From NCBI GenBank assembly GCA_017543835.1, contig JAFYFJ010000001.1, positions 1 through 42,254 of the forward strand: a stretch of DNA of 42,254 nucleotides, given 5' to 3'. Positions 34,477-40,387 of the stretch are shown here, one piece after another. The DNA comes from Alphaproteobacteria bacterium (lineage in GTDB: Bacteria > Pseudomonadota > Alphaproteobacteria > RF32 > CAG-239). Position 1 is the stretch's first letter. Each line of letters starts with the position of its first letter. The position numbers were made by a program, and so were the translations under genes. Under the pieces are notes generated by a model. The model did not search any database, was not told the origin of the DNA, and saw nothing but the letters and a program-made list of their open reading frames with translations.

Positions 34477-34758
34477 TTACATCACCGTCTTTACCAACAT
34501 TTTTTGTGCCGGAACACATAAGGTGTGGCGTTCAAGCTGACGCAGAAGAACATTTTTCATACGCAATTCCACCAGTCGAATCTGTGCCTTTTCGCAAAAA
34601 GAAAAACGCGTTGCGTATTCAATCAAAATTTCCTCATCCTGCCGTTCTGCCAAAACAACCTGGGCTTCGTGGCTAAAGAAGGTGTGGTCCCACCATTTGC
34701 GCAATTCTTCCGGACTACCGTTTTGCGCCAATTCCATCTCAAAAGTCATTTTTTTCAT
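34477..34758 (-). CDS. Small helical protein (93 aa) built of three [FL]-[SC]-x-x-AQ-x-x-L-V units
   Basis: FFSHEAQVVLAE, FSFCEKAQIRLVE and TLCVPAQKMLVK show the same short motif as ISVAAQKEM and ICRAAQKKM in the two large paralogs. Confidence 0.55.
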   Translation of the reverse strand: MKKMTFEMELAQNGSPEELRKWWDHTFFSHEAQVVLAERQDEEILIEYATRFSFCEKAQIRLVELRMKNVLLRQLERHTLCVPAQKMLVKTVM

Positions 34759-34805
34759 AATGATACGAGTTTGAATAATGATGTGTAAAATAATAATTTG
34801 AAACT

Positions 34806-35219
34806 TTACTTTTTCAGCTCGGCGCGAATAGCGGTTGTCGAGCGCACCGGCAACAAATCTTTCGGAATACGGTTACTGACGACATAACGCACACCCAAAC
34901 CCTCGACAAACGCACGTTTTTCGGCACTGTCGCCATCGGTATTCACAAAGAAAATATCCGGCTTGATTTGCTTGATTTCTTCAGCAAAATCGAGCTTACC
35001 GCTGCCTTGAGCCACAAATGCCTGATGCACAAAACGTATGGCCGAAACCATATACAGACGCTCGTCTTCGTTATAGAGCGTCGGGCGATGTTTAAGCTCT
35101 TCCACCGTTTTATCCGAACCGATGGAAACATACAAATCACCGTATTGCGAGGCCTCCTCAAAAAAGCGGATATGCCCGCTGTGCAACACATCAAAACAAC
35201 CCGATACAAATACTTTCAT
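34806..35219 (-). CDS. Cytidylyl/adenylyltransferase-family protein (TagD/RfaE-domain-II-like, 137 aa)
   Basis: VFVSGCFDVLHSGHIRFF is the HxGH nucleotidyltransferase motif. It is the last gene of the glycan operon, 1 nt after the GT8 stop. Confidence 0.85.
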   Translation of the reverse strand: MKVFVSGCFDVLHSGHIRFFEEASQYGDLYVSIGSDKTVEELKHRPTLYNEDERLYMVSAIRFVHQAFVAQGSGKLDFAEEIKQIKPDIFFVNTDGDSAEKRAFVEGLGVRYVVSNRIPKDLLPVRSTTAIRAELKK

Positions 35220-35220
35220 C

Positions 35221-36132
35221 TTATTTATCCTCTATACTTAACAGTGGAATAACTCCGAAAAGTTTATATTTTGTCTGATTCGTCTTTTTATTAAGTTCTG
35301 CCATCACTTTAGCCAACACATCCTGAAACTCCTGATAAAACAGAATAAAGCGGGTATTCCAAGGCTTTGCCGCACCGGCATAATGGATAATAAACGGATT
35401 TTGAAAACCCTCAATCATTTCCTGATTGCCTTCTGTTTTGCTGTGAGTATGAACGGTAACACCATATTTGAAATGCAGTTTTTTGTAATTATTGGCAAAC
35501 ACCATATTAAATGCATCCAAATCTGCCGCAACCAACTTGTCGTGATATTGTATAGCTTTCTCAACCAGCTTGGCGGTAATATCATATTTTCGCCAATAAG
35601 CGCAATTAATAATGATATTGGCCGACTGAAAATATAAGTGACTTTCATCAATCGAAAATGTTTTCTTGCGTAACCGATGATTAAATATCCCCTCATGTTC
35701 TTTGCCGATTTCTTCGACGGTTGCCGCAATTCCGTAATTACCTAAATCAATGGCATAATACTTGGCAATATCCCCCATAAATATGCAATCCGCATCGGTA
35801 TAAATAACTTTGTCATATTTCTTGCATATTTCCGGAATAAAAAAGCGTGAATATGCCGACGTGCTGAAATGAAAAAGATTGGGAAAACGTTGCAAATCAT
35901 ATCGTTTCATATCAACAAAAGACAGCTTACAATTTTCAAAACGCTCCATCGCCTTTTTGATTTGCTTTTTATGCTCGGATGTTACGCCATCAGCCAAAAG
36001 AAAAAAGTGAATGAAAGATTTTGTTTTTTCCAAAATGGAATATATACAAACCGTCGTCGGTATTGTATAATTATCGTTCAGTGCCAAAACAACCGGAATC
36101 ACTTTTTTTTTTGTTTTTTTGCCGAATATCAT
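35221..36132 (-). CDS. Glycosyltransferase family 8 (LgtC/RfaJ-like), with the C-terminal KLFGVIPLLSIEDK tail
   Basis: IPVVLALNDNYTIPTTVCIYSI, YTDADCIFMGD (DxD) and HYAGAAKPW are GT8 motifs. Confidence 0.88.
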   Translation of the reverse strand: MIFGKKTKKKVIPVVLALNDNYTIPTTVCIYSILEKTKSFIHFFLLADGVTSEHKKQIKKAMERFENCKLSFVDMKRYDLQRFPNLFHFSTSAYSRFFIPEICKKYDKVIYTDADCIFMGDIAKYYAIDLGNYGIAATVEEIGKEHEGIFNHRLRKKTFSIDESHLYFQSANIIINCAYWRKYDITAKLVEKAIQYHDKLVAADLDAFNMVFANNYKKLHFKYGVTVHTHSKTEGNQEMIEGFQNPFIIHYAGAAKPWNTRFILFYQEFQDVLAKVMAELNKKTNQTKYKLFGVIPLLSIEDK

Positions 36133-36160
36133 TTTATAGTCCCTGCTTTATGGTATTATT

Positions 36161-36994
36161 TCAGTTATCATCTATACTTAATAACGGAATAAAACCAAAA
36201 AGTCTATAAGATTTTTTCTGTGAGAAATGGATATGTTTCCACTCATTTTGTTCGGCTCGTTTCTGGCGCGCCAATTTTTGGTGCCTCTCAAAATCGTCCA
36301 ATTCCTGCCGCGTATAATAAATATTGTTAAATCGGCTATGCTCTATTTTCCGCAACTGTTCATTTTTCGGATTTGCCGTTGCACCATCGAGCCAAAAACG
36401 TCCGACCAATGTATGAAGCATTTTGACCTTCTCGCCGGCGCTAATCAGGCGTAAATTCATTTCCGTGTCGGCCGAAATTTTGTAGCTTTCATCATACAGA
36501 CCGTATTTTTCAAACAAGGCTCGACGATAAAAAGCCGACTGATGCGCCATCGAATATTTCAAAAAAGTCATCTTATCAATCGGACTTTGATGGCGCCAAA
36601 CATACGCCAACTTTTTGTCCGAATTAAAACGTTCTTCTTCGGCTTGCAAAATGTTTTCGGTATATGTGTTATTCTTGAAAACTTTTTCAAGCGCATCACA
36701 AATCGCATATTCGTCGCCGCCGTTCATAAAATTAAGCCACTCGCCGTGCGCCAGTTTAATTCCCTTATTCATGGCATTGTATATGCCCTTGTCTTTTTCG
36801 GAAATCAGAATATTGATGCGGTCGGCATATTCTTTGAGCACATCAACTGTGCCGTCGGTGGAACCGCCGTCAACCACAATCCACTCAAAATCCTGCCAAC
36901 TCTGATTAACGATGCTCTTGCAGGTGCGCTCGATTGTGTCTTTGATATTGTAACTGACTGTAATAATACTCAATGTCGGATTTTGTTTTTTCAT
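36161..36994 (-). CDS. Glycosyltransferase family 2, with the C-terminal RLFGFIPLLSIDDN tail
   Basis: LSIITVSYNIKDTIERTCKSIVNQSWQDFEWIVVDGGSTDGT is a GT2 N-terminal pattern. The ATG at 36994 has the SD GAGGA 8 nt upstream. The track TTG start is 37009. Confidence 0.88.
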   Translation of the reverse strand: MKKQNPTLSIITVSYNIKDTIERTCKSIVNQSWQDFEWIVVDGGSTDGTVDVLKEYADRINILISEKDKGIYNAMNKGIKLAHGEWLNFMNGGDEYAICDALEKVFKNNTYTENILQAEEERFNSDKKLAYVWRHQSPIDKMTFLKYSMAHQSAFYRRALFEKYGLYDESYKISADTEMNLRLISAGEKVKMLHTLVGRFWLDGATANPKNEQLRKIEHSRFNNIYYTRQELDDFERHQKLARQKRAEQNEWKHIHFSQKKSYRLFGFIPLLSIDDN

Positions 36995-36995
36995 C

Positions 36996-37970
36996 TTACT
37001 TATCCTCAATACTCAAGAACGGAATAAAGCCGAAAAGTTTATAGATTTTAATACTGCGGGTCGGAGCTTTCAAACTGCGGGTCGGAGCTTTCAAAACGGG
37101 TTGAACCGTCTTAGTTACGCCCTTTCTGAAAGGGTTTTGCAAATTATAAAAATGTTTCCACAAAACAGCATTCATCAGATATACCCGTTGGTCCGAATGA
37201 TATTTTTTTATATCCAGTTTAAATGTGGGCGAGAAGAGCCGTTGGTCCTTGCTGCTGTAATGTGCCCCTTCTTCACCGATATTGGATATTAAATTTTTGG
37301 TCGGAAAAATTGTCAGGCCTTTCTGCTCGGCAATACAAAAATTCCATGGGAAATACCAACTGTTGATTTCGTTTCTTTTAACTCTTTGCAGAATATAATT
37401 CCAATATTGTTTTATGTTGAAAAATGATGAGATATTCTCAACAACATCATCATTGATATCCGAAACATCCAAGCGAAATTTCTGCCATCTGTCTGCCCAA
37501 GTTGCCCAGCCCCAACAATGTGAAACCGAGGCAAATTCATAAGCATACGGGCTTTCAACTTGTGCCACAGGCAAATAACCGACGATACTGAATACCTTTT
37601 TATCGTTTTTATATTTATCGAGCAATTTTTCGCAAAATGTAAAAAACGACGGTGAAGGCAGACAATCGTCTTCCAAAATTATGCCTTCCGGCTCGTTTTC
37701 CAAAAACCAGGTTATCGCGCCCGAAACACCTTTACCGCAACCGCCGGAATTAACCTCCAGAAAACGCGTTTTCACTACACAATCCCAATCAATGTGACTC
37801 AAAAGATAATCGCGCACTTTCTGCACTTTTTCTTTTTCACCCTCTTTATCCGGACGCGGACCGTCGGACGCAATATACAACCGCGGCGGTTTAGCTTTGG
37901 CAACCGCGGCAAACACATCTTTTAAGCAATCCAACCGATTAAATGTCGGCAGAAGTATGGCCGTTTTCAT
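36996..37970 (-). CDS. Nucleotide-diphospho-sugar glycosyltransferase, GnT-I (GT13)-like, with the C-terminal KLFGFIPFLSIEDK tail
   Basis: ILLPTFNRLDCLKDV and GIILEDDCLPSPSFF match the E-D-D plus SP-x-FF pattern of GnT-I-type enzymes, from memory. The SD GGAGA lies 5 nt before the ATG at 37970. Confidence 0.72.
   Translation of the reverse strand: MKTAILLPTFNRLDCLKDVFAAVAKAKPPRLYIASDGPRPDKEGEKEKVQKVRDYLLSHIDWDCVVKTRFLEVNSGGCGKGVSGAITWFLENEPEGIILEDDCLPSPSFFTFCEKLLDKYKNDKKVFSIVGYLPVAQVESPYAYEFASVSHCWGWATWADRWQKFRLDVSDINDDVVENISSFFNIKQYWNYILQRVKRNEINSWYFPWNFCIAEQKGLTIFPTKNLISNIGEEGAHYSSKDQRLFSPTFKLDIKKYHSDQRVYLMNAVLWKHFYNLQNPFRKGVTKTVQPVLKAPTRSLKAPTRSIKIYKLFGFIPFLSIEDK
37053..37094. repeat. Perfect 21-bp tandem duplication (2 units) inside the GT gene 36996-37970
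   Basis: ACTGCGGGTCGGAGCTTTCAA occurs at 37053-37073 and again at 37074-37094. It is in frame and encodes LKAPTRS twice, immediately upstream of the tail motif. Confidence 0.95.
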
Positions 37971-38631
37971 CAGCATCTCCGTATTTTTTAACAAATTCTT
38001 CTACATCAAAGAACATTTTTTCAACTTGCCGCAACTTGTCATCCGGCCAATTCCACCATTGAATTTTTTGCATTTTTTCAATGACATGCGGCGGAAAACG
38101 ATACTTGATGATATGTGCCGGCACCCCGACGGCAATGGCATACGGCGGAATATCTTTGTTGACAACCGCACCGGCACCGATAACGGCACCGTCGCCGATT
38201 GTGACACCGTCTAAAATGCAAACATTCATGCCTATAAAAACATCATTGCCGATAACGATCGGTTTACGTTCTTCTATTTTATTCTCGGCGCAGAAAGTCA
38301 TCCCGTTTTGTTTGCCTGTCGAATAAAAGCACGGAGCTGTCGATATGCCGTTTGTCGGATGAATGCCCCAACCGCAAATTAAGTTAGGGCCGATGGAACA
38401 GAACTTCCCTATTTTTGTCATAGATATATGTGAATTACTTGAAACATAAGTTCCGCGCCCGATTTCAACCTGTTTCCCTATTTGATACGGCTTATACATT
38501 TTCACTTCAGGGAAAGACTTCTCTTCCGACTTAGCATTACCCGAATAAGGATAATTAGGTTCGGTCGTCTTTTCCTTAATCGAGAACAGCGGTATAAAAC
38601 CAAACAACTTCCAGCGTATTTCTTTTTTCAT
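37939..38631 (-). CDS. Hexapeptide-repeat (XAT/Vat/CatB-like) acetyltransferase with the N-terminal WKLFGFIPLFSIKEK motif
   Basis: IGKFCSIGPNL...HPTNGISTAPCFY...IGNDVFIGMNVCILDGVTIGDGAVIGAGAVV...WWNWPDDKL is an XAT signature. The ATG at 38631 lies 2 nt after the stop of the small ORF. The track ORF extends upstream to 38775. Confidence 0.83.
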   Translation of the reverse strand: MKKEIRWKLFGFIPLFSIKEKTTEPNYPYSGNAKSEEKSFPEVKMYKPYQIGKQVEIGRGTYVSSNSHISMTKIGKFCSIGPNLICGWGIHPTNGISTAPCFYSTGKQNGMTFCAENKIEERKPIVIGNDVFIGMNVCILDGVTIGDGAVIGAGAVVNKDIPPYAIAVGVPAHIIKYRFPPHVIEKMQKIQWWNWPDDKLRQVEKMFFDVEEFVKKYGDADENGHTSADI

Positions 38632-38633
38632 TT

Positions 38634-38843
38634 TTACACCTTTTTTTTGCTCACTTTGAGCATCAAAATGCCTAAAATATAATATTTCGATACGCCTTTT
38701 GCTTGATCGTGAACACGGCCATATATCGGCAAGCCCAAAACTTTCCAAGTTTTTCTGCCGCCGCGATGTGTCCAACCGTATAACGGCAAAAAGCCGAATA
38801 ATTTGATTTTATGTGTATGTTTAACTGTTTGTTCTTTAGCCAT
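38634..38843 (-). CDS. 69-aa ORF consisting only of three tail-motif units
   Basis: MAKEQTVKHTHKIKLFGFLPLYGWTHRGGRKTWKVLGLPIYGRVHDQAKGVSKYYILGILMLKVSKKKV is collinear with the last approximately 62 aa of GT2 39027-40157. The ATG is preceded by GGGGA, and the ORF is tightly coupled to the acetyltransferase gene. Confidence 0.5.
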   Translation of the reverse strand: MAKEQTVKHTHKIKLFGFLPLYGWTHRGGRKTWKVLGLPIYGRVHDQAKGVSKYYILGILMLKVSKKKV

Positions 38844-39026
38844 TTGTTTCCCCGTTCGTTTGAAAAAATTACAACTTATATTTGTATTTTTTATATTATT
38901 TGTTCTTATACTTCACTCGAATATAAATGTCAACCCCTAAAAAACACTTTATACAGCATTATCGGGGGTTGTTTGAAAACAGACCCCGATACCTCATCTA
39001 ATATTGTGTAAAAACAATATGTTATG

Positions 39027-40157
39027 TTAAATCTGCGGCAATTCTTCTTTTTTGCTGATTTTTACGACCGGCAAAAAGCCGAACAGATAATACTTTATGG
39101 AGCCGTCGTTGGCCATTTTGCGCCGTTTCAACATCGGAATACCCAAGATATTCCAAACTTTTTTACCGCCTTTTTCCTTCCATCCGCCAAGCGGTAAAAA
39201 GAACAGGAGTTTATATGTTTGAGAACGTTTTGCCACTATATCATCTTTCATTTCCTTAAAACGCTTGGTTTCGTATAAGTCGTGATACAGGCGCTCCGAA
39301 AGGTGTTGTTTTGCCAAATCGCGCAACAGGCGGATATCGTCTTGCGTTTCCCAACGCAAACTGCTGGCCAAAGTATAGAACATTTTTTCATAAAACTTGT
39401 CATATAATCCGAGTCTTTGCAGATTCTTTTCGAGTGCCGCCGCCGCTTGAATAAAGTATTCGTTTTTGCCGAATCGGTCGCTCGAAGTTTGCGTGCCGGT
39501 ATTCGAGCGATAATGCACAAACGGCTTGTTAATAAAGCTGATTTTCTGCGCCGTCGCGATGGTTAGATAAATGCAGGTCAAATCGTTGCACTTTTTCAGA
39601 TTTTCAAAGCGCAGATTATATTTTGTGAACAAATCGTGCTTAATCAGCTTTGTCCACGGTGTCGGAAAGCAAAAGTTAAACAGCTTGTCGGAATATTCTT
39701 CCGGCTTAATCGGCGCATCAAGCATCATTTGCGGATTAAGCTTGCGCCGAAAAGTATTTCTTTCACGCATTTGGTCATAGGTGTAATAACCGCAGACAAC
39801 CATATCCGCTTCTTCGTCCTCGGCTTTGTTATACATTTCTTCAAGCATCTCCGGCTCAAAGAAATCATCGGAATCCAAAAAGCTTAAGTATTCGCCCTGA
39901 GCCGCATCAAGTCCGGCATTACGCGCCGCACCGGCAAATTTGTTTTGTTGCTTGATGATTTTGATACGTTTATCCTGTTTGGCGTATTTGTTCAAAATCG
40001 TCAGCGAGCGGTCGGTCGAGCCGTCATCCACGCAAATAATCTCAATATCCGGCAATGTTTGATTAATCACGCTATCCAAACATTGCGGCAGATATTTTTC
40101 CACATTGTATACCGGTATTACGACCGAAACTTTTGGCTTTTGTTGTTTTTTTCTCAT
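39027..40157 (-). CDS. Glycosyltransferase family 2 with a triple tail motif at the C-terminus (376 aa)
   Basis: VSVVIPVYNVEKYLPQCLDSVINQTLPDIEIICVDDGSTD and LDSDDFF are GT2 motifs. The ATG at 40157 has the SD AAGGA. The track start is 40214. Confidence 0.88.
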   Translation of the reverse strand: MRKKQQKPKVSVVIPVYNVEKYLPQCLDSVINQTLPDIEIICVDDGSTDRSLTILNKYAKQDKRIKIIKQQNKFAGAARNAGLDAAQGEYLSFLDSDDFFEPEMLEEMYNKAEDEEADMVVCGYYTYDQMRERNTFRRKLNPQMMLDAPIKPEEYSDKLFNFCFPTPWTKLIKHDLFTKYNLRFENLKKCNDLTCIYLTIATAQKISFINKPFVHYRSNTGTQTSSDRFGKNEYFIQAAAALEKNLQRLGLYDKFYEKMFYTLASSLRWETQDDIRLLRDLAKQHLSERLYHDLYETKRFKEMKDDIVAKRSQTYKLLFFLPLGGWKEKGGKKVWNILGIPMLKRRKMANDGSIKYYLFGFLPVVKISKKEELPQI

Positions 40158-40387
40158 AAATATTCCTTTGATTTTGTTATGTTTATGGCTCGAAGATATA
40201 AGAGCCGCCGCCAAATGTCAAGCGCTAATGTCGGCTTATAAGACATTGCGGCGAATATCCCTTTTTCGCCAATAAGCCGCATACTTTCTGACACATTTTT
40301 CTCATCTTTTGTGGCATAGAGCGTTGAAAGCCCGAAAAACATACATATCTAGGTAGAGGTTTTTGTTAACAATAAAGGAGAAAGGTT

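Follow-up and report, generated by a model that had tools for sequence, protein, structure and literature searches.

An undescribed portable module, predicted to form a β-hairpin, on bacterial glycan-assembly enzymes

A glycan operon with a recurrent tail

We analysed a stretch of 42,254 nucleotides, called the window below, from contig JAFYFJ010000001.1 of an Alphaproteobacteria bacterium of the RF32 lineage (GenBank assembly GCA_017543835.1). Nine consecutive open reading frames (ORFs) occupy positions 34477–40214, all on the minus strand, and five of the enzymes that they encode carry a short peptide tail with the unit Y-K-L-F-G-F-I-P-L-L-S-I-E-D-K. The unit is present once at the C-terminus of a GT8 glycosyltransferase (GT), of a first GT2 enzyme (GT2a) and of an enzyme resembling GnT-I, once at the N-terminus of an acetyltransferase, and three times in a second GT2 enzyme (GT2b). 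It represents an undescribed, portable module of glycan-assembly enzymes, a β-hairpin according to structure prediction, that reaches well beyond this window. The features of the locus are listed below from high to low gene coordinates, each tail following its gene; lengths of proteins are in amino acids (aa).

39027–40157 (−): GT2b, a GT2 glycosyltransferase (Pfam Glycos_transf_2, E = 3.2e-46)
39048–39221 (−): three-unit C-terminal module of GT2b, paralogous to the 69-aa ORF (44% identity)
38844–39026 (−): spacer of 183 nt between GT2b and the 69-aa ORF, with an inverted repeat at 38961–38990 (read from the sequence)
38634–38843 (−): free-standing three-unit 69-aa ORF, units KIKLFGFLPLYGW, KTWKVLGLPIYGR and KYYILGILMLKVSKK
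37939–38631 (−): hexapeptide-repeat (left-handed β-helix) acetyltransferase, ATG at 38631 (Pfam Hexapep, E = 9.8e-15)
38569–38613 (−): N-terminal unit of the acetyltransferase, WKLFGFIPLFSIKEK, about 25 residues before the catalytic domain
36996–37970 (−): GnT-I-like (GT13-like) GT-A glycosyltransferase, no Pfam family, assigned with AlphaFold2 and Foldseek
36999–37043 (−): tail of the GnT-I-like GT, one C-terminal unit after a linker predicted to be disordered, YKLFGFIPFLSIEDK
36161–36994 (−): GT2a, a GT2 glycosyltransferase (Pfam Glycos_transf_2, E = 3.6e-23)
36164–36208 (−): C-terminal tail unit of GT2a, YRLFGFIPLLSIDDN
35221–36132 (−): GT8 glycosyltransferase (Pfam Glyco_transf_8, E = 1.8e-43)
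35224–35268 (−): C-terminal tail unit of GT8, YKLFGVIPLLSIEDK
34806–35219 (−): cytidylyltransferase-like enzyme, no tail (Pfam CTP_transf_like, E = 5.7e-13)
34477–34758 (−): 93-aa ORF downstream of the cytidylyltransferase, no tail, with counterparts of 91–115 aa at the same position in the related loci L002, L020 and L028

A preliminary description of this DNA had claimed tails on five enzymes, and all of them were located when the translations were re-read. GT8, GT2a and the GnT-I-like GT end in ...TKYKLFGVIPLLSIEDK, ...KSYRLFGFIPLLSIDDN and ...IKIYKLFGFIPFLSIEDK, respectively, each followed directly by the stop codon, and the acetyltransferase begins with MKKEIRWKLFGFIPLFSIKEK. A sixth carrier, the free-standing ORF of 69 aa at 38634–38843, had been overlooked. 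The cytidylyltransferase had been given as the sole member without a tail; the conserved 93-aa ORF (34477–34758), which has no Pfam or NCBIfam family and is the probable last gene of the locus, lacks it as well. The cytidylyltransferase itself is the conserved 3′ partner of a variable run of cassettes, and it follows the last tailed enzyme in L001, L002, L016, L020 and L028.

A degenerate DNA pattern for L-F-G-x-x-P-x has six matches in the 42-kb window, all of them on the minus strand within the operon; shuffled sequences would yield 0.05, which excludes chance as the explanation of the tails. Neither a peptide regular expression nor a local hidden Markov model (HMM) run on the six-frame ORFs gave a convincing further copy of the unit in the window.

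The glycosyltransferases GT8, GT2a, GT2b and GnT-I-like are all of the GT-A type, either from their Pfam GT2/GT8 matches or from the modelled fold. The AlphaFold2 model of the GnT-I-like enzyme, with a mean predicted local distance difference test score (pLDDT) of 91, matches GnT-I (1foa, E = 1e-10) and SpsA (1h7l, E = 1e-6) in Foldseek, so that the label given earlier to 36996–37970 is borne out. GT8, GT2 and GnT-I-like enzymes are thus separate sequence families with a common GT-A fold, and the window shows two folds among the tailed enzymes (GT-A and left-handed β-helix) rather than the four unrelated ones that had been announced.

The N-terminal position of the unit in the acetyltransferase depends on where translation begins. 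NCBIfam matches (Vat/CatB-type) run from residues 47–53 onwards, which places the unit on an N-terminal extension, and the unit is conserved in L001, L002 and L035. We considered a start at MYKPYQ, with the unit left untranslated, and rejected it: L002 conserves the extension and has no internal Met at the equivalent position, so that translation must begin upstream and include the unit.

The predicted hairpin, its free-standing form and its carriers

In a profile of 61 units, in which positions −4 to +5 are biased by the pattern used for retrieval, Lys or Arg account for 23–43% at positions −9 to −5, Tyr for 72% at −4 and Lys stands at −3, followed by L-F-G-(F/I)-(I/L)-P-(L/I/F)-(L/F) at −2 to +5 (the Gly and Pro of this core being conserved at 89% and 98%) and by charged residues from +8. 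Only 9–10 residues (−2 to +7) make up the hydrophobic run, which the Gly and the Pro interrupt. The unit core YKLFGFIPLLSI amounts to about −3.9 kcal/mol on the Wimley–White interfacial scale. The end of the unit is acidic (IEDK, IEEK) in alphaproteobacterial loci and reads KIKEK in other lineages.

AlphaFold2 predicts each unit as a β-hairpin with the Gly at its tip, hydrophobic residues around the tip and Lys and Tyr at the base. In the GnT-I-like GT, residues 286–303 form a disordered linker of 18 residues (pLDDT < 50), after which the tail is modelled as a strand (306–312), a turn (F313-G314-F315) and a second strand (316–323) with pLDDT values of 63–84. The 69-aa protein, modelled with 19 homologous sequences, would contain six strands arranged as three hairpins in one sheet (pLDDT 83.7, predicted template-modelling score 0.60), with hairpin turns at F16-G17-F18, L36-G37 and L57-G58 and connecting turns at G28-G29 and Q47-G50. 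In an up-and-down sheet, the alternation of these turns would place the three hydrophobic tips along one edge and the Lys/Arg-rich ends along the opposite one. We propose that the three-unit form may stand on its own as a mini-domain, one sheet whose three greasy tips share an edge. A Foldseek search with the 69-aa model returned nothing at E ≤ 0.001 (best E = 0.27), and the top matches, which are not significant, include the single-layer sheet of OspA and the MORN-containing N-terminal domain of SET7/9.

The predicted fold bears on what kind of tail this could be. AlphaFold2 predicts no helix in the tail or in the triple module, whereas an amphipathic membrane-targeting sequence or the classical C-terminal helix of a GT would form one, and the unit has no uninterrupted hydrophobic segment of at least about 18 residues, as tail-anchored or single-pass proteins have. 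The C-terminal position of most tails in the operon and the charges that flank the hydrophobic stretch would suit a transmembrane tail-anchor, or a sorting, secretion or degradation signal. We nevertheless hold such a role to be extremely unlikely: a hydrophobic run of 9–10 residues broken by conserved Gly and Pro is too short for a helix that spans the bilayer, the prediction is β and not helical, the unit is also found N-terminally and internally, the carriers require cytoplasmic nucleotide-activated donors, and the sequence bears no likeness to LPXTG, PEP-CTERM or GlyGly-CTERM architectures.

The free-standing form of the module is encoded by the 69-aa ORF (MAKEQTVKHTHKIKLFGFLPLYGWTHRGGRKTWKVLGLPIYGRVHDQAKGVSKYYILGILMLKVSKKKV), the first gene of the transcription unit, whose stop codon lies 2 nt before the ATG of the acetyltransferase. 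The ORF is intact, at 64–71 aa, in eight other loci (L002, L020, L021, L028, L033, L042, L043 and L044, the L043 copy being the same protein as in L042); its N-terminus is altered in L001 and L035, and in L039 it is cut by the end of the locus. The free-standing protein usually heads a run of tailed enzymes. Compared with its relatives, the proportions of differing non-synonymous and synonymous sites (pN/pS) range from 0.03/0.64 to 0.26/0.47, and dN/dS is 0.02–0.45 at dS 0.7–1.5. The intact frame across loci together with the low dN/dS shows that the ORF is a real gene under purifying selection. We also considered that it might be the dead remnant of a deleted enzyme's tail, and rejected this because the frame is intact in eight other loci and dN/dS goes down to 0.02. 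A homology search with the single sequence returned only the query itself, its word index being too coarse for short proteins, and a profile of 19 sequences gave 28 matches, none of which has an assigned name.

We then looked at how far the unit extends beyond the window. One genome per species, from 185,579 species, was scanned with the pattern Y-K-L-F-G-x-I-P-L-L, which gave 39 matches against about 3 expected from our own frequency estimate. About 27 of the 39 fall within the last 13–65 residues of ORFs of 190–530 aa. The hosts are mostly uncultured gut Alphaproteobacteria, Melainabacteria/Gastranaerophilales and Bacteroidetes (Paludibacter); locus L035 comes from an alphaproteobacterial metagenome-assembled genome (MAG) and is about 89% identical to the window. 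The tail-bearing enzymes of these hosts belong to the GT2, GT8, Stealth and aldo-keto reductase families.

Moreover, a profile of two three-unit modules, run against 1.84 billion representative proteins, retrieved 78 clusters. About 20 are free-standing (52–93 aa), most have the module at the C-terminus of enzymes of 340–1300 aa, some have it at the N-terminus of coiled-coil proteins, and one has it between a GT2 and a GT4 domain. Pfam assigned 42 of the three-unit carriers to GT2 (22), GT4 (six), GT8 (five) and TupA-like ATP-grasp (two), with DUF4422, Stealth, RgpF, WcbI, TagF-like, DUF1796, FUT8-like, FkbM methyltransferase, DUF6492 and NTP_transf_3 occurring once each. The module is found on at least 15 families of glycan enzymes, which include GT-A, GT-B, left-handed β-helix, Stealth, aldo-keto reductase, ATP-grasp and methyltransferase proteins. 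The portability proposed earlier holds on this larger scale, since the one-unit or three-unit form occurs on many enzyme families and in C-terminal, N-terminal, internal or free-standing position.

The preliminary description had not recognised the tail as a named domain, and we found no curated match, no structure and no paper for it. Five tail or module sequences gave no Pfam family at E up to 10, the 69-aa ORF gave no NCBIfam family at E up to 1, and in whole-protein domain scans of the carriers no domain spans the tails. The best match of the 19-module profile among Protein Data Bank sequences has E = 0.25 and is spurious. The motif strings are absent from the 8.3 million papers searched, concept searches of the literature returned nothing relevant, and tblastn with the three-unit module found no match in plasmid and phage collections. 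In the source databases the module-bearing proteins are named 'hypothetical protein', and some homologues of the GnT-I-like enzyme 'nucleotide-diphospho-sugar transferase'.

Three further observations concern individual carriers and the spacer. The aldo-keto reductases are non-transferase carriers with a TIM-barrel fold and bear a two-unit tail; they were found in an alphaproteobacterial MAG (L012, 4166–5203, plus strand; Pfam Aldo_ket_red, E = 1e-39) and in a Gastranaerophilales MAG (L027, 1657–2667, minus strand; E = 1e-46). The linker of the GnT-I-like GT contains a perfect tandem duplication of seven residues, LKAPTRS LKAPTRS (37053–37094, minus strand), of which the 95%-identical orthologue (P0001, in L001) has a single copy. 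Finally, a promoter-like TTGACA–17 nt–TATAAG can be seen by eye at 38933–38905 in the spacer 38844–39026; its −10 element ends in G, so that a consensus scan does not list it.

Tails at gene junctions

The preliminary description had pointed to near-repeats of 45 nt at the 3′ ends of three genes as ready-made homology for the swapping of whole enzyme cassettes. The three near-repeats exist, with 80–82% nucleotide identity. Between the three single tails of the window, 48–68% of the synonymous sites differ (pS 0.48–0.68), compared with 6–11% of the non-synonymous sites (pN 0.06–0.11). Such near-saturated synonymous divergence with kept residues indicates that the near-repeats are not recent copies: they are old, and it is selection on the peptide that maintains them; recent gene conversion as their origin was rejected on the same synonymous differences.

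Comparison with related loci shows where cassettes begin and end. GT8 and the whole GT2b gene are absent from L001 and L035, in spite of an identity of about 90% with the window. Homology to the window covers 38796–36288 and starts again at 35268, exactly on the first base of the GT8 tail. The tail present in L001 matches the GT8 tail perfectly over the last 22 nt, as does the downstream gene, and differs from it at seven of the first 30 nt, a pattern compatible with a crossover within the tail. The second deletion (40271–38796) ends in unit 1 of the 69-aa ORF (compared with L001 9143–9175), so that L001 and L035 lack GT2b in full, the spacer and 16 codons from the start of the 69-aa ORF. Among the 302 homology-block ends counted in 11 related loci, 117 fall no more than 30 nt from a tail, where the background is 5.6% (approximately sevenfold enrichment). 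This figure is to be read with the knowledge that alignments naturally run into conserved tails and that viable breakpoints are to be expected in any event at gene ends, the place of the tails. The proposed cassette swapping is partly supported, by the position of the GT8 indel edge and of the block ends at the tails; the role given to the repeats is less so, since at about 80% identity they are poor substrates for homologous recombination. Given the conservation of the tails, their position at gene ends and this identity, we regard them as marking the cassette boundaries between related loci, and not as a demonstrated cause of exchange.

The tails also contain the ribosome-binding signal of the following gene, which had been overlooked. 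Two tail ends of the window (35221–35235 and 36996–37010, minus strand) read ...GAG GAT AAA/AAG TAA G ATG, and the final codons of the tail (GAG GAT or GAA GAG) provide the next gene with a Shine–Dalgarno sequence of the GAGGA type. Stop and start are exactly 1 nt apart at nearly all cassette junctions of the alphaproteobacterial loci, including L002, L016, L020, L028 and L033. In this lineage, the Shine–Dalgarno sequence encoded by the same codons is the probable reason why the tail ends in acidic residues. With such a standard junction (tail with Shine–Dalgarno sequence, stop, 1 nt, ATG) and mosaic loci, glycan operons may diversify by the exchange of whole cassettes.

We may wonder at this stage whether the 45 nt are selected as DNA or RNA, as a recombination joint or a translational-coupling signal, the peptide being a by-product. 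The ribosome-binding sequence within the last tail codons, the GT8 indel edge on the first tail base and the clustering of block ends near the tails would all agree with this. We consider it very unlikely all the same. Synonymous change in the tails is near saturation with the residues conserved; units are also found at an N-terminus, in internal tandem arrays and as a free-standing ORF, none of these at a gene junction; other phyla have it with the different ending KIKEK; AlphaFold2 yields a defined fold for it; and an identity of 80% with exact runs of at most 8 nt is poor for RecA-dependent exchange.

Other mosaic features were seen in the related loci. In L002 (3374–5777), a GT2 enzyme of 247 aa and the C-terminal half of a GT2–GT2 fusion of 553 aa share a near-identical N-terminal segment of about 85 residues (MKKPTLSIITICYNIKDEIERTCKSIVNQTWQDFEWIVVDGGSTDG...). 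This segment and the tail that precedes it recur with 70–86% nucleotide identity in the window and in L001, L016, L020, L028, L033 and L039, and it forms another recurrent mosaic boundary, one that lies within the GT2 gene. In L020 (3180–3847 in reverse-complement coordinates), two fragments of 68 and 155 aa stand in place of a GT2 gene that related loci keep intact, perhaps through a frameshift, as a pseudogene or by phase variation; the GT8-like and Stealth genes next to it in L020 also look N-terminally shortened.

Tail interchange and a putative membrane-surface anchor

The best 120 homologues of the GnT-I-like enzyme were sorted by their C-terminal tail using an automatic classifier (HMM). 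The KLFGFIP tail is present in 23 of them (18 single and five double), a second tail type ...ILGIKIKFKRKK (IFSIKN...KVITILGIKIKFKRKK) in 17, nine are truncated or fused, and 71 were classified as 'other'. Inspected by eye, this last group includes about eight close variants of the KLFGFIP tail, for example KLFGKIPLFHWRK, and about five variants of the second type (about 22 in total for this type); the remaining tails mostly combine Lys/Arg with aromatic residues, such as YPLFLFRKDFW or LRRWNHRRINRK. Nearly all full-length orthologues thus end in some basic/hydrophobic extension, the type of which is interchangeable. Of the indirect arguments, this is the strongest for a generic role of the tail, such as attachment to the membrane surface.

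The second type, ...IFSIKN..NHK(V/I)(L/I)TILGIKIKFKRKK, is itself portable: it replaces the KLFGFIP tail in P0003, P0009, P0011, P0012 and others, and also lies near the N-terminus of a TagF-like enzyme (VIKFFGLTLKIKRR; L002, 14–1534) and of a 301-aa protein in L042 (4362–6240).

We consider that the tail is probably an interfacial membrane anchor of the β-hairpin type. Of the functions put forward earlier, a 'membrane-interface anchor' fits the predicted structure and the swapping of tails among orthologues, and the carriers are cytoplasmic glycan-assembly enzymes of many folds. In such a mechanism, a hairpin unit of about 17 residues, with a hydrophobic tip (L-F-G-F-I, then P-L-L) and a base containing Lys/Arg and Tyr or Trp, would be tied by a flexible linker to otherwise soluble cytoplasmic enzymes that depend on nucleotide sugars or CoA. 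The tip would enter the cytoplasmic leaflet of the inner membrane, with the basic/aromatic collar at the phospholipid head-groups. Sequentially acting enzymes would thereby be held at the surface where the lipid-linked glycan acceptor resides, and one, two or three units would tune the avidity. We infer both the membrane insertion and the co-localisation. All the enzymes that would act on the lipid-linked glycan carry the tail, and the cytidylyltransferase, which would make a soluble precursor, does not have it.

Known systems provide partial precedents. LgtC, WaaJ, CstII and Helicobacter pylori FucT have C-terminal tails for membrane association. The lipopolysaccharide (LPS) enzymes LpxK and WaaA use basic–hydrophobic surfaces at the membrane surface (PMC6286764), and the teichoic-acid glycosyltransferase TagA a C-terminal appendage for membrane association (PMC6493773); more generally, LPS and teichoic-acid glycosyltransferases of the membrane surface employ basic/hydrophobic surfaces, amphipathic helices or C-terminal appendages (PMC6286764, PMC6493773). 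Like the tails of LPS or lipooligosaccharide and teichoic-acid enzymes, the present one is a short basic–hydrophobic extension on a soluble catalytic domain that would act on a lipid-linked acceptor; it lies behind a linker, appears dispensable for the fold and varies between orthologues. Those tails are, however, amphipathic α-helices or patches restricted to one family each, whereas the module described here has a conserved Gly/Pro motif and a predicted β-hairpin, spans at least 15 enzyme families, is repeated one to three times and also exists free-standing.

The membrane-targeting sequences of MinD, FtsA, MreB and RNase E would be similar in kind to such an anchor, being transplantable peripheral membrane peptides of about 10–20 residues whose avidity is raised by multimerisation; they differ in being helical, without a conserved motif and unlinked to glycan enzymes. 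Similar in predicted architecture are MORN repeats, choline- or cell-wall-binding repeats and the central sheet of OspA, which have hairpin units of about 20 residues with Gly at the turns and aromatic residues, the tandem form of our module being predicted as a single-layer sheet as well. Binding to membranes or lipids has been linked to MORN repeats. The module differs from MORN and cell-wall-binding repeats in that it matches no Pfam HMM and gives Foldseek E-values of 0.27 or worse, has another consensus, is cytoplasmic and has hydrophobic tips. Finally, the discoidin C2 spikes of factor V/VIII and lactadherin are β-hairpin tips with Leu, Phe or Trp that insert into one leaflet within a basic ring, and by analogy the greasy tips of our hairpins within their basic surroundings would resemble them. 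These spikes are loops of a large β-sandwich in secreted eukaryotic proteins and have no homology to the module.

Several points weigh against anchoring. A lone β-hairpin, as modelled here, would leave edge hydrogen bonds unsatisfied, which makes deep insertion costly and favours pairing with other strands. The acidic end of the tail (IEDK, IEEK) in the alphaproteobacterial loci is unusual for binding to anionic lipids, and the AlphaFold2 confidence of the single hairpin is just moderate. No integral-membrane partner that would link the operon to a defined lipid-linked acceptor is found among its genes. Moreover, the conserved free-standing protein with its three predicted hairpins has no obvious role if every enzyme anchors itself.

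This last point leads to a docking or co-assembly tag, in which the hairpins would pair edge-to-edge (β-augmentation) with one another and with the free-standing protein, forming a common sheet that would bring the enzymes of the pathway together in one complex, whether membrane-bound or not. Every transferase of the operon carries one to three of the predicted hairpins; such operons, that of the window and those of the eight other loci, begin with or contain the gene of a three-hairpin protein that has no other domain and is under purifying selection; the modelled single-layer sheet has two open edges, with which hairpins may pair with each other; and the three-unit module is also fused to the N-terminus of coiled-coil proteins. 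We judge this to be rather unlikely. Loci from Melainabacteria, from Paludibacter and from other Alphaproteobacteria have tailed enzymes and no free-standing protein within the 8-kb stretch fetched, and orthologues swap the hairpin for unrelated basic/aromatic tails, which fits lipid binding better than a protein–protein code. Both these loci and the GT4 enzymes without a tail in L042 speak against an obligatory scaffold. Co-assembly is compatible with anchoring and may add to it. In a combined form, which seems unlikely to us, the hairpins would be strands of a shared β-sheet at the membrane surface that is nucleated by the free-standing protein, enzyme tails adding at its open edges, and the pathway metabolon would be built through a swappable connector that carries the next ribosome-binding site. 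If the enzymes do co-assemble, the module would be a simple genetic solution for building pathway metabolons.

Membrane anchoring through a β-hairpin would most likely represent a new structural type within a known function, that of peripheral membrane anchor, with co-assembly of the hairpins as a possible addition. To our knowledge, the peripheral membrane anchors of bacteria described so far are essentially all helical, and a β-hairpin class would be added to them. A recognisable, uncurated module would then mark glycan enzymes of many folds as membrane-surface enzymes in gut lineages that are poorly known, such as RF32-like Alphaproteobacteria, Melainabacteria and Bacteroidetes. This would help annotation, and soluble constructs could be made more easily because the tail can be removed by simple truncation; the module may also offer a compact transplantable tag.

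Lastly, it should be noted that the three-unit module is N-terminal on proteins of 126–266 aa with a Gln/Glu-rich, coiled-coil-like middle (P0155, P0158, P0160, P0170, P0172, P0189, P0190 and P0198), several of which end in the conserved sequence ...R(V/I)(R/K)VYHAE(L/V)LERLDNLP.

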